Shown here: piece after piece, positions 3,366 to 51,011 of the stretch
Position numbering within the stretch: the stretch's first letter is position 1
Layout of the letters: each line of letters opens with the position of its first letter
Notes under the pieces: model-generated
The model's input: the letters and a program-made list of their open reading frames with translations, nothing else
Databases searched by the model: none
Told to the model about the DNA's origin: nothing
Origin: Phycisphaerae bacterium
GTDB taxonomy: Bacteria > Planctomycetota > Phycisphaerae > UBA1845 > PWPN01
Assembly: GCA_012719955.1 (NCBI GenBank)
Contig: JAAXZI010000049.1
Location: 12,309-76,308 of the forward strand
DNA length: 64,000 nucleotides
Reading direction: 5' to 3'
Translations under genes and position numbers: made by a program

Positions 3366-3385
3366 CACCACAACGCAAGGTCTCG

Positions 3386-3450
3386 TGGTGGCCGGGCTAC
3401 GTATCGGCCGTTCTACGGGAAAAACGGCCGGTACGGAGCCCGGCCGCTAC
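3386..3450. repeat. family-A palindromic repeat, inverted dimer (REPIN-like)
   Basis: gtggtggccgggctacgtatcggccgttc (decayed, reverse orientation) faces acggccggtacggagcccggccgctac (3424-3450). Each unit is a hairpin: cggccgg, an 8-nt loop, ccggccg. Confidence 0.8.
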
Positions 3451-6940: not shown

Positions 6941-7390
6941 TCAGCTCTCCGCCCCGTCAGCGGCCGCTTCGTCGCGCTTCTTCAAGTAGCGCAGCCGCAG
7001 CAGGCTGGTCACCCGCTCCACCAGTTCGGCCCGGTTGACCGGCTTGGTCAGAAACTCCTCGGTCCCGCTGTCCACCGCCCGCTCGTGGTCGCCCATCTCG
7101 TCCAGGGCGGTCACCATAACCACAGGGATATCCCGGGTCCGCGGGTCGGTCTTAATTCGCCGGCAGACCTCAAACCCCGACATTTTCGGCATCATGATGT
7201 CCAGCAGGATCAGGTCGGGGGGATCCTCTGCCAGTCTGGCCAGGGCTTCAATTCCGTTCGCCGCCTCCATGGTGGTCACGTTGGGGATATCCTCCACATA
7301 AGCCACGAGGAGCTCCCGGTTCTGGACGTTATCGTCCACGATCAACACTTTCGACGGTGGCGGCACTTCATGTTCTTCGGACGTCAACAC
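6941..7390 (-). CDS. single-domain response regulator (receiver)
   Basis: KVLIVDD ... PDLILLDIMMPKMSGFEVCRRIK ... PVVMVTA matches a CheY-like receiver. Confidence 0.9.
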   Translation of the reverse strand: MLTSEEHEVPPPSKVLIVDDNVQNRELLVAYVEDIPNVTTMEAANGIEALARLAEDPPDLILLDIMMPKMSGFEVCRRIKTDPRTRDIPVVMVTALDEMGDHERAVDSGTEEFLTKPVNRAELVERVTSLLRLRYLKKRDEAAADGAES

Positions 7391-11781: not shown

Positions 11782-12305
11782 CAGGCCGGATCGGCCGGAT
11801 GGTTTTCCCCACTGTAGCAGCGCTGGAACACGCCGAAGTCGTCCTGGTCTACGTCGCCGTCCTGATCGCGGTCCAGAATGTCAAAAGTCGCCTGCGCGCA
11901 GCCGGCCGGTGGACCGAAAGTGGCCGGACCGGTGGAACAGAAGTCGAAGACCATCAAGTCCCTGGCGTCCACGTCCCCATCTCGCAGGAAGTCAAACGGG
12001 ATCATCGGGGGGCAGCCGTCCGCGTCCACCGGCGAGCCGGGAATGGTGTTGAGACACAAATCCAGGCTGTCCGGAATACCATCGCCGTCTGCGTCGCCGT
12101 CGCTGTGGACGGCCAGGCTGTGATAGCCGCCCCCCGCGACGGCCACGAAGCCGCTGTTGGGCACGGGGACGTTGGTCTGGCCGTAGTCGTTGTATCCCCA
12201 GGCCACGATGGAGCTAATGGTCTGGCCGTTCGCCATCCCGGCACTGCCGCCCAGGCCAGCAAAAAACTGGTTGCCGCAACCCTGAAGAAACGCGTCATTC
12301 TGCAC
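11772..12305 (-). CDS. RCC1-repeat fragment plus thrombospondin-type-3/dockerin-like Ca-binding C-terminal region; probably a truncated gene
   Basis: The motifs are WGYNDYGQTNVP and GGYHSLAV (RCC1 blade), DADGDGIPD, and DVDARD/DQDGDVDQDD. There is no signal peptide, and an in-frame stop lies 15 codons upstream of the GTG start. Only about 1.5 of the 7 blades of a propeller are present. Confidence 0.45.
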   Translation of the reverse strand: MQNDAFLQGCGNQFFAGLGGSAGMANGQTISSIVAWGYNDYGQTNVPVPNSGFVAVAGGGYHSLAVHSDGDADGDGIPDSLDLCLNTIPGSPVDADGCPPMIPFDFLRDGDVDARDLMVFDFCSTGPATFGPPAGCAQATFDILDRDQDGDVDQDDFGVFQRCYSGENHPADPACAG

Positions 12306-12677
12306 CTCCGCGCCATAAGAAGAAATGCGCCTGCTCAGGAGGGAACTGTGCTACAGCTAAACTGTTGTATTTTCTACTAATAGCCATAAGCTTACCGTGA
12401 CACCTCTCGCACAAAACGAACAATTTTGTTAATAGTGAAGATAGTTCAGCCAGGGGCGAAGATACCGTACAACGCGTCTCTCCATTCAGGATGCCACGCA
12501 AACGGGGGAACATGAGACGGTCACGGAATGGCAGGGGATAAACAGACGGGACAGGTTCGTTTTTGCCGACTGATCCGGACGCCGACGAGCCGGCCTTCGC
12601 GGCTCCATGCCGCGGAAACGGCGGCGGAACTGGAGCCCGACAGCGCAAACGTCGTAACGGCCGTTTTGCCCATGCGA

Positions 12678-12737
12678 CGGCCGGTACAGAGCCCGGCCGC
12701 TACGAGCGAACGGCCGGTACGGAGCCCGGCCGCTACG
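12678..12737. repeat. family-A repeat, two tandem copies (33-nt spacing)
   Basis: acggccggtacagagcccggccgctac gagcga acggccggtacggagcccggccgctac. Confidence 0.85.
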
Positions 12738-19718: not shown

Positions 19719-19761
19719 GGCGTGCATCTTGCACGCCTTTGAGGCGGGCAGGATGCCCGCC
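19719..19761. repeat. two adjacent family-B hairpins
   Basis: ggcgtgca tct tgcacgcc (19719-19737), then ggcgggca gga tgcccgcc (19743-19761). Confidence 0.8.
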
Positions 19762-19898
19762 CCCCTGATGCGCCCGGCCGGTTCACCACAATCCTTTGCC
19801 AGACCCCTCCGGGCAACTTCTCAAGCCCCATGCTACCTGTTTTTCGGACCCTGTGCCAGGAACGGACCCAATGGATGCCGGGAATGGAGCAAAAAGGT

Positions 19899-19926
19899 GT
19901 AGCGGCCGGGCTCTGTACCGGCCGTT
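19899..19926. repeat. family-A repeat (reverse orientation)
   Basis: gtagcggccgggctctgtaccggccgtt. Confidence 0.85.
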
Positions 19927-20325
19927 TGGTCCTTTAGGCCATGGCTGGCACGAACCTTGACCGCTCCAAAAATGCCGCGCAATTCCCGCTTGCCTGCCGG
20001 CGGAATGTATCTCATGCTTGGGGTGCAACACGCGACCTGAGTTCGAGGCAGGCATCGCGGGGTCGGCTGGGGAAAGTCGCGGAGGCCGTACCCTGTGGGG
20101 CTTGTCCAAAGGAGGGTTAAGAAGACAGGCAGGGTACCCAGGGGGAGCGGCATCGGCCCGCGTGCTGCAGCCCGCTCGTTGGTCGGACCTGGCGGCCTTC
20201 CTCGGATGGGATGAGACCGCTCTCGGCCGCACGGGCCTGTTCTCCGGCCAACCAGCGACGGTTCACTACATCCCGCGTCCGTCCCCCTGGGCCCTGGCCT
20301 GCTTACCTGCACACCACGGTATCGG

Positions 20326-20445
20326 AAGGTGAGAAGGTGCGAACGTGGGAAAGTGAGAACGTGGGCAGGTGCGGATGTGGGAAGGTGTGCACGTGGGAAA
20401 AACGAGAAAGGGGGAAAGCGAGGAAGGGAGAAAAACACGTCGGCT
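20326..20445. repeat. purine-rich low-complexity array (GTGAGAA/GTGGGAA-like units)
   Basis: aaggtgagaaggtgcgaacgtgggaaagtgagaacgtgggcaggtgcggatgtgggaaggtgtgcacgtgggaaaaacgagaaagggggaaagcgaggaagggagaaaaac. Confidence 0.7.
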
Positions 20446-20717: not shown

Positions 20718-20744
20718 ACGGCCGGTACGGAGCCCGGCCGCTAC
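20718..20744. repeat. family-A repeat
   Basis: acggccggtacggagcccggccgctac lies about 70 nt downstream of the gltD stop. Confidence 0.85.
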
Positions 20745-20810: not shown

Positions 20811-22434
20811 CTATGCCCGTGGCAGGTCGCCTTCGCCCTTCGTCGGCAGCAGCGTGCAGCCCATCAGATGCTGATCGATGCTCCGGGCTGCCTCGCGGCC
20901 TTCGCTGATGGCCCAGACCACCAGTGACTGGCCCCGGCGCATGTCGCCGCAGGCGAAGACGTTGGGCCGGCTGGTGCGGTAATTCTCGTCCGTCTTGACG
21001 TTGCCGCGCTCGTCGAGCTCCACGCCGAGTTGGGCAATGACGCCGTCGGGTTCCGGCCCCACGAAACCCATGGCCAGCAGCACGAGATCCGCCGGCCAGA
21101 GCTTTTCGCTGCCGGGGATTTCCCGCATCTGCGGGCGGGAGCCGTTGCTCTGCGTCCACTCGACCTCCACCGTCTCCAGGCCGGTCACCCGGCCGGCCTC
21201 GCCGATGAAGCGGCGGGTGAGAATGCTCCAGTAGCGCTGGCAGCCTTCCTCATGTGAGCTGCTGGTGCGCAGCTTCATGGGCCAGTACGGCCAGGGCTGA
21301 TTCGCCGGGCGGCCCTCGGGCGGCTTGGGCAGCAGCTCGAATTGCGTCACGCTCCGGGCGCCCTGACGGTTGGACGTGCCCACGCAGTCGGAGCCGGTGT
21401 CGCCGCCGCCGATGATGATCACATGCTTGTCAGTAGCGAGAATGTCGCCCTTGCCCTGGCTGAACCACCAACGGCCGGCAGGCGCACCTGCATCAACACC
21501 AGCGGAACGGTTGGTATGGAGATCGGTTGCTACAGCGTCAGAACGGCCGGTACAAAGCCCGGCCGCTACAGTGCCGGAACGGTCGGCACAGAGCCCGGCC
21601 GCTACAGCGGCGGCTGCGTGGGCGATCTTATCGCCGGCCACGCGCTTGTTCTGCTGGGGCAGGAACTCCATCGCGAAGTGAATGCCCTCCAGCTCGCGGC
21701 CGGGGATGGGCAGGTCGCGCGGTTTGGTGGCCCCGCCGGCCAGCACAATCGCGTCAAACTCCCGGTTGAGTTCGTCGGCGGTGATATCAAAGCCCACGTT
21801 CACGCCCGGCCGGAAGGTGACGCCCTCGGCCTCCATGATGGCCAAGCGCCGGTCGAGCACCCGTTTTTCCAGTTTAAAATCGGGGATGCCGTAACGCAGC
21901 AGCCCGCCGATGCGGTCGGCCCGCTCGAAGACCGTCACCCAGTGGCCGGCGCGGTTGAGCTGGTCGGCGGCGGCCAGGCCGGCCGGGCCGGAACCCACGA
22001 TGGCGATCTTCCTGCCCGTGCGTTTCACCGGCGGGTTGGGTTTGATCCAGCCTTCCTCAAAGGCCCGCTCGATGATCGAATACTCGATCTGCTTGATGGT
22101 CACCGGCGGCTCATTGATGCCCAGCACGCACGACTCTTCGCAGGGCGCGGGGCACACTCGGCCAGTAAATTCGGGGAAGTTGTTGGTCGAGTGCAGGAAA
22201 TCGATCGCCCGCCGCCAGTCGCCCAGATAAACGAGGTCGTTCCAGTCCGGGATCAGGTTGCCCAGCGGGCAGCCGGTGTGGCAGAACGGCACGCCACAGT
22301 CCATGCACCGGGCCCCCTGCTGCTGAAGCTGGACCACGGGCAACGGAATATGGAACTCACGGTAGTGCTTCCGCCGCTCCTCGACAGGCAGGTCCCGGAA
22401 TTCCTGCCGGGGAATCTCCTTGAATCCGGTAGGC

Positions 22435-22442
<8 letters not shown>
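20811..22442 (-). CDS. gltD: glutamate synthase (NADPH) small subunit, with a repeat-derived insertion
   Basis: The motifs are [19 protein letters not shown]...[21 protein letters not shown] and [21 protein letters not shown]. The GTG at 22442 gives the canonical (M)GKPTGF N-terminus and overlaps the gltB stop by 8 nt. Confidence 0.93.
21505..21612. repeat. family-A repeat, 3 x 36 nt tandem, intragenic and in frame
   Basis: The three units are gaacggttggtatggagatcggttgctacagcgtca, gaacggccggtacaaagcccggccgctacagtgccg and gaacggtcggcacagagcccggccgctacagcggcg. Confidence 0.85.
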
Positions 22443-27263
<4,821 letters not shown>

Positions 27264-27267
<4 letters not shown>

Positions 27268-49586: not shown

Positions 49587-49613
49587 ACGGCCGGTACGGA
49601 GCCCGGCCGCTAC
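49587..49613. repeat. family-A repeat
   Basis: acggccggtacggagcccggccgctac. Confidence 0.85.
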
Positions 49614-49634: not shown

Positions 49635-51011
49635 TCAGAGGCGGGCAGGATGCCCGCCCCCCTTGATATGGTGCAGCCACGCCTGAACGGTAATGCCTAC
49701 CAGCACCAGCCCCGCCGACACCGCGTAGGGCACCGGCAGCCCGAACCGGTCGGCCAGCATCCCGCCCATGGCCGGACCGGCGATACCCATCACCCCCACC
49801 ACCGCCTCGTTGATGGACACGTACCGGGCGGCACGGGTCGGATGGACCAGGGCGTGGTACACGTAGTAGAAGTAAAACGAACCGGCATACACCCCGAAGC
49901 ACACCGCCGCCGTCCAGAACAGCGCCACGTCCCGCCCCACCGCAAATAAGACCATCCCCAGCACGCCGAACAGCCCAAAACCGATCACCGGCCAAGGGCG
50001 GTACATCCAGGTCCGGCTCCAACCCAACAGAAAGCCCACAATCGCCTGCGTTCCACTCAGAAGCAGGAACATCGTGCCCTGGGAAGGCTTGGACAGGCTG
50101 AAGGCCTCAGCACTGACGGGAAAATGGCTGCGGATCATGGTGGCGATCATGCAGCCCAGGCCACCGAACACCCACGCCATCCAGGCCAGGTCGGGCAGAG
50201 AGCCGGCCGCCTTCTCCGAGGGGCGGGTAGCCCGCCCGCCTTGCTCTCCACTGGCACAACAAGTCAGTTCCTGCGGTGATTGCGTGGGGGGCGCCGCCGG
50301 CAGAGGTATAGGGCCCGTGTCGTCAGAAGGCGGACAGGATGTCCGCCCCCCGCTGCCATCCAAAGGCGGGCAGGATGCCCGCCCTCCGATGTCTTCCGAA
50401 GGTGGGCAGGATGTCTGCCCTCCTGGTGGGGCCTCGGCGTGGTGCTTCAGCAGAAATATCCCTATCGCCATCATCGCCGAGGCTGCCGCGTTGAACAGGT
50501 GGCACACCTGCCAGCCGTAAGCCCACAGAAAACCGGCAATAAACGGCCCCAGGGCAAAGCCGCTGCTCCACGAAAACACGTACAATCCTGACGAGCGGGC
50601 CACGCCCTTGTTCTGCCCCTCGTCCACCAGTTTCATAAACACCTGGAACGGCGTGAAGAAAAAGGCGGTCGCGACCCCCTGAATCGCGATGATCACATAC
50701 ATCGCCCGCATGCCCGGCCAGCGCACGTAAGACAGGGCCAGCAGCGCCGTGGCCGTACAGGAAGCCACCAGGATCAACCCGACGTTTCGCCGGTTGACCA
50801 CCTGCCCCGCCCCCAGTGATGACACGAGGTAGACCCCCGCCCAGATGGCGAACAGGCCGCCGGTGGCCATCGATGATCCCGTCATCTCCGCCAGGCGCAC
50901 CGCGCAGACGAACAGAACCGCCGACAATATCACATCCGTAATGCCCGCGAAGGAGTAGACCGTAAGACGAATCAGCGTACGGTCCCAATCTCGCGACAAC
51001 CTGACGGTCAC
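49635..51011 (-). CDS. MFS transporter with a repeat-derived insertion in the central loop
   Basis: There are about 12 hydrophobic segments. The start overlaps the upstream stop (ATGA). The central loop contains GGQTSCPPSEDI/GGRASCPPLDGS/GGRTSCPPSDDT. Confidence 0.8.
   Translation of the reverse strand: MTVRLSRDWDRTLIRLTVYSFAGITDVILSAVLFVCAVRLAEMTGSSMATGGLFAIWAGVYLVSSLGAGQVVNRRNVGLILVASCTATALLALSYVRWPGMRAMYVIIAIQGVATAFFFTPFQVFMKLVDEGQNKGVARSSGLYVFSWSSGFALGPFIAGFLWAYGWQVCHLFNAAASAMMAIGIFLLKHHAEAPPGGQTSCPPSEDIGGRASCPPLDGSGGRTSCPPSDDTGPIPLPAAPPTQSPQELTCCASGEQGGRATRPSEKAAGSLPDLAWMAWVFGGLGCMIATMIRSHFPVSAEAFSLSKPSQGTMFLLLSGTQAIVGFLLGWSRTWMYRPWPVIGFGLFGVLGMVLFAVGRDVALFWTAAVCFGVYAGSFYFYYVYHALVHPTRAARYVSINEAVVGVMGIAGPAMGGMLADRFGLPVPYAVSAGLVLVGITVQAWLHHIKGGGHPARL
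49640..49658. repeat. family-B hairpin forming the last codons of the MFS gene
   Basis: ggcgggca gga tgcccgcc. On the minus strand it reads GGGHPARL followed by the stop. Confidence 0.85.
50329..50419. repeat. family-B hairpin, three copies at exact 36-nt spacing, intragenic and in frame
   Basis: The copies are ggcggacaggatgtccgcc (50329), ggcgggcaggatgcccgcc (50365) and ggtgggcaggatgtctgcc (50401). Confidence 0.85.

Follow-up and report, generated by a model that had tools for sequence, protein, structure and literature searches.

By what route does a core metabolic enzyme come to carry, in frame and several times over, a palindromic repeat that otherwise lies mostly between genes? Selfish palindromes that sit in frame within essential genes are commonly presented as a curiosity of Rickettsia. 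The question is raised here by gltD, the gene for the small subunit of glutamate synthase, on a 64,000-nt stretch of a Phycisphaerae contig (JAAXZI010000049.1), which we call the window and in whose numbering all coordinates are given. A preliminary description, based on the letters of the window alone, reported three 36-nt units within gltD, built on a hairpin that recurs in intergenic DNA, and knew of no equivalent for this kind of genome.

Our main finding is that, judged by its sequence, the repeated element is a member of a GTAG-tagged family of repetitive extragenic palindromic (REP) sequences, present in Phycisphaerae and related Planctomycetota, and that the gltD array differs by one 36-nt unit between nearly identical strains. 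Further copies of the family are found in frame in the partner gene gltB and in many unrelated genes of other genomes.

An in-frame repeat array within gltD

The open reading frame (ORF) at 20811-22466 on the minus strand encodes GltD (PDB 7mfm_I, E = 2e-147). Its start is probably not the end of the ORF at 22466 but the GTG at 22442, giving MGKPTG: this codon has a GGAGG 7 nt upstream and creates an 8-nt overlap with the gltB stop, matching the gene calls in relatives. The frame of 543 amino acids is intact, has a GC content at third codon positions (GC3) of coding type (0.83) and conserves every catalytic block. Within it, three 36-nt units lie head to tail at 21505-21612, in frame. Tandem Repeats Finder reports 21529-21609 with a period of 36, 2.2 copies and 84% matches, and the units at 21577-21612 and 21505-21540 match the middle unit (21541-21576) at 31/36 and 24/36 positions, respectively; the array as previously described is thereby borne out, and its translation agrees with the reported position between conserved blocks. 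The adjoining block in the same register, 21469-21504, still matches the middle unit at 20/36 positions. Since this is far above the background of 10.1 +/- 2.7 measured on both strands of gltB and gltD, where 20 or more matches occur at 13 of 12,842 positions, the block is probably a fourth, heavily decayed unit. The gene and the units are as follows.

20811-22442, minus strand: gltD, glutamate synthase small subunit, host of the array, identified by homology; GTG start at 22442 probable
21577-21612, minus strand: array unit 1, the first in gene sense; core at 21579-21605 with 2 mismatches and a damaged stem; 31/36
21541-21576, minus strand: array unit 2; core at 21543-21569 a perfect REP, hairpin intact
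21505-21540, minus strand: array unit 3, decayed; hairpin lost; 24/36
21469-21504, minus strand: probable array unit 4, strongly decayed, in exact register; retains AACGGCCGG; 20/36

Identity to the consensus thus drops toward the 3' side of gltD, from 36 through 24 to 20 of 36 positions; folding indicates that only the middle unit of the array still forms the hairpin, and the final codons of the probable fourth unit overlap the conserved WWFS motif. AlphaFold2 predicts the insert to be a disordered loop between confident domains, with a predicted local distance difference test score of 25-35 (all below 50) for GltD residues 279-323 and confident flanks.

The repeat is a GTAG-tagged REP

A scan with the 27-nt core ACGGCCGGTACRRAGCCCGGCCGCTAC (the same core is also given as ACGGCCGGTACNNAGCCCGGCCGCTAC) gave 10 hits in the window when up to 3 mismatches were allowed and none in 100 shuffles. 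They include every spacer copy that had been named before (3424, 12677, 12710, 19899, 20718 and 49587), plus two on the minus strand, at 3385 and at 25788, the latter within gltB. On the reverse strand the element starts GTAGCGGCCGG and reads GTAGCGGCCGGGCTCCGTACCGGCCGT, a stem-loop with a terminal GTAG. Its 27 nt comprise a 7-bp GC stem, an 8-nt loop and the GTAG/CTAC tag, with a folding energy of -9.4 kcal/mol as single-stranded DNA. In an alignment of 102 copies its boundaries are sharp, information content falling to background just beyond 27-28 nt; as the flanks are unconserved, we take 27-28 nt to be the unit. The CTAC end carries 2.0 bits per position in these copies, which had been preselected at no more than 1 mismatch. 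Over 10 variants the stem is 100% paired, three of its seven pairs show compensatory double changes, and no slid register comes close.

The exact 27-mer is present on at least 61 genome stretches, from at least nine species-level Planctomycetota metagenome-assembled genomes (MAGs), and on at least 101 metagenome stretches. The motif is therefore not confined to the sites of the window, more than 160 loci elsewhere having it. Copies are arranged as singletons, as head-to-tail arrays with a period of 25-36 nt, as inverted pairs, and as composites of 57-61 nt resembling bacterial interspersed mosaic elements (BIMEs), in which a REP is joined to a second hairpin, GTGTGGCACCGGCTTCCAGCCGGTGGG. The GTAG tags point outward in 17 of 17 inverted pairs, whose spacers measure 12-29 nt, apart from two of about 105 nt. 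Tandem BIME-like composites were seen in L012, L014, L031, L032, L039 and L054 (for example, L031:6513-6652), and they are translated in frame in UbiD and HypF. Copies of the window outside the glutamate synthase genes are these.

3385-3450, both strands, (-) then (+): REPIN-like inverted pair with a 12-nt spacer; folds as one long hairpin, -32 kcal/mol, z = -8.45
12677-12736, plus strand: intergenic tandem pair of perfect REPs, period 33, from the core scan and Tandem Repeats Finder
19899-19925, minus strand: single intergenic REP in the gltD-sulfatase spacer, from the core scan
20718-20744, plus strand: single REP on the downstream side of gltD, ending 67 nt from the first base (20811) of the gltD stop
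49587-49613, plus strand: single REP in the 81-nt spacer between a major facilitator superfamily (MFS) transporter gene and purH, from the core scan

Rfam holds no family for the element: its one match in the window is a tRNA, and near gltD it gives only sub-threshold chance matches. By its features, the element is nevertheless recognizable as a GTAG REP, being a short palindromic stem-loop with a GTAG end and a high, dispersed copy number (10 in 64 kb). It also occurs as inverted pairs with a short spacer that form a long hairpin, the arrangement that defines REPINs, and the window pair at 3385-3450 is one of them. The gltD copies are not extragenic, as the name REP would demand, although most copies of the family are intergenic; the genic location does not exclude membership, because the very paper that defines GTAG REPs describes intragenic exceptions (PMC3733652). 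A near-exact and an exact copy (L034:4545-4571 and 7277-7303) lie on a 755-kb contig with an unconfirmed Desulfuromonadales label, of which nothing but the REP matches other loci; either the bin is mislabelled or the family has spread beyond the Planctomycetota.

A transposase clade accompanies the family in related genomes

A search for a REP-associated tyrosine transposase (RAYT) had been proposed in the preliminary description. Such a gene is indeed associated with the element in related genomes, but none was found within the 64-kb window. At L113/L125, a 165-amino-acid protein scores 79.3 bits against NCBIfam REP_Tyr_transpos, and its gene has an exact REP 12 nt upstream and two variant REPs downstream. 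The sole PDB match of this protein is the E. coli TnpA-REP structure 4er8 (E = 5e-5, 26 bits), with which both the HUH motif (PDHLHVLL versus PEHMHCIW) and the region of the catalytic tyrosine (AYIVDNPV versus DYIYINPV) align. On L180, from the DeMMO2_9 MAG, which is among the REP-richest genomes scanned, a RAYT gene has an exact minus-strand copy upstream and five plus-strand copies downstream. REPs lie around the RAYT gene in the same way at L113/L125, L174, L185, L183 and L181, with stems that change together with the RAYT orthologue; on L174, L185, L183 and L181 the flanking hairpins keep the ACG...GCTAC frame. Of the variants that flank RAYT genes, a single one, a GGTAC copy, departs from the tag. 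We consider it most likely, from these sequence associations, that this RAYT clade mobilises the gltD-type REP as single-stranded DNA.

In several genomes the RAYT gene lies between moxR and a DUF58 gene (L174:2501-2962, L183:1501-2001 and L185:1501-1974), and this shared locus suggests vertical inheritance; moxR and DUF58, like RAYT, are absent from the window. The L174 copy has a premature TAG. The first 559 kb of loci, searched with a profile built from three RAYT sequences, yielded no additional RAYT.

The RAYT genes of L062, L044, L066, L067 and L081 were considered as partners of the gltD REP and rejected because they are flanked by different hairpins (GGTGCGTCAAGACGCACC; GGTGCGAGAA..TTCTCGCACC; CATGCCCACCCACC..). 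At least three of these further Planctomycetota RAYT genes (L062:4219-4758, L044:1590-2237 and L081:1800-2560) each have a distinct REP family of their own, which points to several parallel REP-RAYT systems in the clade.

Lineage specificity and strain-level variation of the insert

An exact look-up of the window GltD gave no identical entry, and a homologue that is 97% identical (P0001, 555 amino acids) stands in for it in what follows. PDB alignments offer no counterpart to GltD query residues ~274-281 to 339-342, a gap that the B. subtilis protein spans with about 12 residues. Among the best 120 GltD homologues only P0001 has the insert, so that the segment is lineage-specific; 118 of the 120 listed are 451-509 amino acids long, and those of them that were aligned lack it. 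The next relatives after P0001 have 498 amino acids and are 85% identical outside the insert. On the contig of one relative (P0002, locus L065) the gltD site is empty, and no copy of the element was found in the 14.7 kb of that locus. The situation that would have deprived the repeat of its meaning, namely relatives sharing the peptide with no nucleotide similarity to extragenic copies, was not encountered.

Three independent assemblies (ENA ERZ27257437, GCA_049654625.1 and GCA_029553145.1) encode P0001, and in each of them the array is in frame and has four clear units, versus three in the window. The window and L001 are 99.8% identical across the ~20 kb of L001 that aligns, with no internal gaps, and the alignment is interrupted only twice, by the 36-nt unit in gltD and by a 165-nt indel near the end of L001. 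Because three assemblies at 99.8% identity have four units, misassembly of the array appears unlikely from the sequences and its length is seen to shift in 36-nt steps. The first unit of the window has private substitutions, so its array is not a collapsed form of the four-unit allele. Evidently, the gltD array gains or loses 12-codon units faster than the neighbouring DNA changes. The 165-nt indel (window 12187-12195 versus L001:20285-20449) lies in an unrelated gene for an RCC1/WD40-like repeat protein and represents variation in the number of protein repeats.

Coding insertions beyond gltD

The large-subunit gene of the same enzyme holds a second array, which had escaped the preliminary inventory; the sites listed there were correct, and the probable fourth gltD unit and an MFS transporter array described below were likewise missed.

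22435-27267, minus strand: gltB, glutamate synthase large subunit, host of the second array, an ORF
25736-25814, minus strand: second REP array, likewise in frame, within the interdomain linker of gltB; a full and perfect REP at 25788-25814, then two 24-nt partial units

The full REP has the opposite orientation, relative to its gene, to the gltD copies; the partial units start at an internal ACGG microhomology, and the linker with the array is ~58 amino acids longer than in L065.

Copies lying in stop-free frames with a GC3 typical of coding DNA were picked out of the collected loci and submitted to Pfam. This validated in-frame genic copies at 17 or more of the 162 other loci, which amounts to about one copy in ten. 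The hosts act in translation (IleS, another class I aminoacyl-tRNA synthetase with three copies, and the CCA-adding enzyme) and on DNA (DnaE at two sites, DprA and MutL), and further include UbiD, MqnA, OpcA, PDH E1 and PutA, as well as two protein kinases, a HAD hydrolase and HypF (in two genomes). The validated copies sit between or within Pfam domains, mostly in interdomain linkers, and some enlarge domain envelopes. Five of the six reading frames of the element are open, as had been noted, the closed one being that which reads the TAG of the GTAG tag; four of the five are used among validated copies, and the fifth (SGRAPYRP) was seen in unvalidated ORFs only. This pattern fits random insertion followed by purifying selection, under which only insertions that keep the frame, bring no stop and fall in permissive loops persist.

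Some copies that had seemed genic turned out to lie upstream of the real start and were discarded: those of L011 and L029, which precede prepilin N-methyl motifs, and those of L037, L046, L111 and L153. The copies of L055, L058, L099 and L145 are candidates only.

Other palindromes enter coding DNA as well. A second palindromic family, GGCGGGCAGGATGCCCGCCC, has five copies in the window versus 0.04 expected (50318-50423, 49640-49659 and 19743-19762). Three of its 36-nt units are arrayed in frame in the part of the MFS transporter gene (49635-51011, minus strand) that encodes the central loop, and another copy encodes the C-terminus of the same transporter. Moreover, the GltD loop just before WWFS contains unrelated palindromic inserts in two other lineages (P0025/L071:580-2136 and P0011/L072:74-1603), one of which reads GTGGCATGG...CCATGCCAC and forms a hairpin of -21.8 kcal/mol. 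It seems that this loop repeatedly receives or tolerates insertions, and together with the MFS array these inserts suggest that hairpin repeats enter coding DNA widely in these genomes.

Origin of the gltD array

We hold it to be likely that the array arose by RAYT-mediated entry of a REP into gltD, followed by amplification. A single copy would have inserted into the variable loop that immediately precedes the NADPH-binding GGGDTG strand. It would have survived because it kept the frame, offered a stop-free frame (VAAGLRTGR) and fell in a loop able to tolerate a flexible stretch in which Gly, Ala, Arg and Thr abound; we infer that the insert is close to neutral for the enzyme. Slipped-strand mispairing or unequal recombination would then have multiplied a 36-nt block (the REP and a 9-nt spacer, 12 codons) in head-to-tail order, the older units decaying by point mutation while the unit number continued to shift between strains in steps of 36 nt. 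The gltB array would have been made by the same process. Duplication of a block is preferred over repeated independent insertion because the spacers between the gltD cores resemble one another (TCYGAY-GYT in gene sense), and slipped-strand mispairing or unequal crossing-over offers the best account of the three- and four-unit alleles.

Several points weigh against this history. Transposition of the REP is deduced from sequence, and the alignment of 102 copies contains no target-site signature. The original insertion boundaries in gltD are blurred, because the nearest relative with an empty site is only 85% identical in amino acids. The window itself has no RAYT gene, and the L113 protein falls just below the curated cut-offs (79.3 versus 80 for NCBIfam and 22.5 versus 23 for Pfam). 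Finally, it is the intact frame and conserved flanks alone that suggest a translated insert and an active enzyme.

Two of these points, the missing target-site signature and the lack of a RAYT gene in the window, would also be expected if the REP had entered gltD and gltB without a transposase, by recombination, gene conversion or template switching from one of its many genomic copies, aided by GC-rich microhomology, RAYT being irrelevant to the genic copies. The orthologous loop of some relatives, which encodes an RTGR/TDRWW-like sequence resembling the tail of the REP, also speaks for such an entry, as does the ACGG microhomology at which the partial gltB units begin, typical of slippage or template switching. 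Against it stand the boundaries of the element, which are sharp and do not differ between genic and intergenic copies, the complete REPIN/REPtron architecture with its co-varying RAYT clade, and the occurrence of genic copies in many unrelated genes that share no flanking homology. We therefore regard transposase-free entry as unlikely; since the partial gltB units are bounded by microhomology, template switching or gene conversion is plausible at least for the amplification.

Very improbable, in our judgement, is that the array is an ordinary protein tandem repeat selected for GltD function, its likeness to a hairpin being secondary, for instance because the intergenic copies derive from gltD. 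An array length that is always a multiple of three and the inserts of other lineages in the same loop would suit such a repeat. However, the core of the middle unit is the 27-nt REP pattern itself, the commonest form differing only at two variable loop positions, and this REP is found in hundreds of unrelated places and in five reading frames; in addition, the outer units show decay, disorder is predicted for the insert, and close orthologues do without it. There is equally little to recommend a pseudogene, or an artefact of assembly in a metagenome bin full of repeats: the sequences do come from metagenome assemblies, in which short tandem repeats can collapse, but three independent assemblies agree on an array in frame, the substitutions of the window's first unit exclude collapse of a four-unit allele, and the intact 543-amino-acid frame has coding-type GC3 and conserved catalytic blocks.

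Comparison with known systems

RPE-1, a Rickettsia palindromic element (RPE), measures about 100-150 bp, and the hosts of RPEs are AT-rich obligate intracellular bacteria; to our knowledge, no RAYT partner has been established for RPE-1. The gltD element, in contrast, has 27 nt, is GC-rich and GTAG-tagged, and is accompanied by a RAYT clade. It shares with RPEs the in-frame presence of palindromes in essential genes, at sites compatible with the protein fold, and their occurrence in both coding and non-coding DNA (Ogata et al., cited in PMC3733652). This resemblance, the in-frame insertion at permissive sites, is one of behaviour only: the tag, the GC-rich 27-mer and the Planctomycetota host are not those of the RPE sequence families (RPE-1 to RPE-8), of which RPE-4 and RPE-6 belong to a CGTC-tagged superfamily (PMC3733652). 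As tag, length and host all differ, the gltD element is not an RPE.

The closest parallel is offered by the GTAG and CGTC REPs, whose presence inside genes was published for many species of several phyla (Di Nocera, De Gregorio and Rocco 2013, BMC Genomics 14:522, PMC3733652). According to that paper, intragenic copies are most numerous in Opitutus terrae, of the PVC (Planctomycetes-Verrucomicrobia-Chlamydiae) superphylum, for the GTAG type, and in R. conorii, as RPE-4 and RPE-6, for the CGTC type; GTAG families of the PVC superphylum are given for R. baltica and O. terrae; and intragenic tandem clusters encode 43-82 amino acids, with inserts in DnaE and tRNA synthetases (PMC3733652). Like the present family, GTAG REPs are short GTAG-ended stem-loops, abundant, often arranged as inverted dimers, mostly located downstream of genes and around RAYT genes, with a fraction inside ORFs as single, dimeric or clustered inserts. 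The sequence family differs, GTAGCGGCC not being found in the supplementary tables of PMC3733652 (the consensus sequences of its Figure 1 were not compared), and the paper covers neither Phycisphaerae nor, among its listed host genes, glutamate synthase. Change of unit number at the strain level and the invasion of both subunits of one enzyme are features of the present case.

The REPIN-RAYT systems share with it inverted REP pairs with a short spacer that form a long hairpin, and a single-copy RAYT gene flanked by REPs of its family and vertically inherited at a conserved locus, with which the REP co-diverges (Bertels and Rainey 2011, PMC3116915; PMC3337134). Descriptions of REPINs in Pseudomonas and enterobacteria place them outside genes (PMC3116915; PMC3337134), whereas about one in ten copies of the gltD-type family is genic. 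Head-to-tail arrays and BIME-like composites are also common in this family, unlike in the REPIN-RAYT description. In the related genomes, RAYT genes are flanked by REPs of the same family, as in those systems; this does not hold within the window. The E. coli TnpA-REP (4er8) shares its HUH and catalytic tyrosine regions with the L113 protein, a distant match from which the activity of the latter is predicted only.

Implications

The novelty suggested in the preliminary description was overstated, since intragenic GTAG and CGTC REPs had already been published (PMC3733652), so that we are dealing with a new family and host within a known phenomenon, of which they are a clear case. What is new is the family with its RAYT clade in Phycisphaerae, the fact that both glutamate synthase subunits are hit and the change of unit number at the strain level. 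A free-living, GC-rich clade of Planctomycetota, equipped with a classical REP/RAYT system, thus behaves in the way usually associated with Rickettsia, and its host genes span replication, repair, translation and central metabolism. Selfish DNA that lengthens essential proteins is a known yet rarely documented route of protein change, and the copies assembled here form a tractable data set on the rate at which REPs remodel proteins, on which loops are tolerant and on the targeting of coding DNA by RAYT. Peptides derived from hairpins can also mislead gene callers, aligners and MAG quality checks.

It is doubtful, though worth keeping in mind, that REP arrays act as hypermutable length modules in the linkers of core enzymes and are not mere passengers. 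The idea is compatible with a unit number that varies at 99.8% identity, with the presence of arrays in both subunits, and with the arrival in one and the same GltD loop, independently and in different lineages, of three palindromic families that are unrelated. If true, this loop would be a preferred target, or flexible length would be under selection, and REP/RAYT systems would be a recurrent source of protein innovation in Planctomycetota.

Other features of the gltD-sulfatase spacer

The spacer between gltD and the sulfatase gene contains, at 20324-20436, a G/A-rich tandem repeat with a period of 16 nt (GAACGTGGGAAGGTGC-like) and ~7 copies. In relatives, gene callers annotate in this spacer an ORF of 201 amino acids, which is probably spurious.

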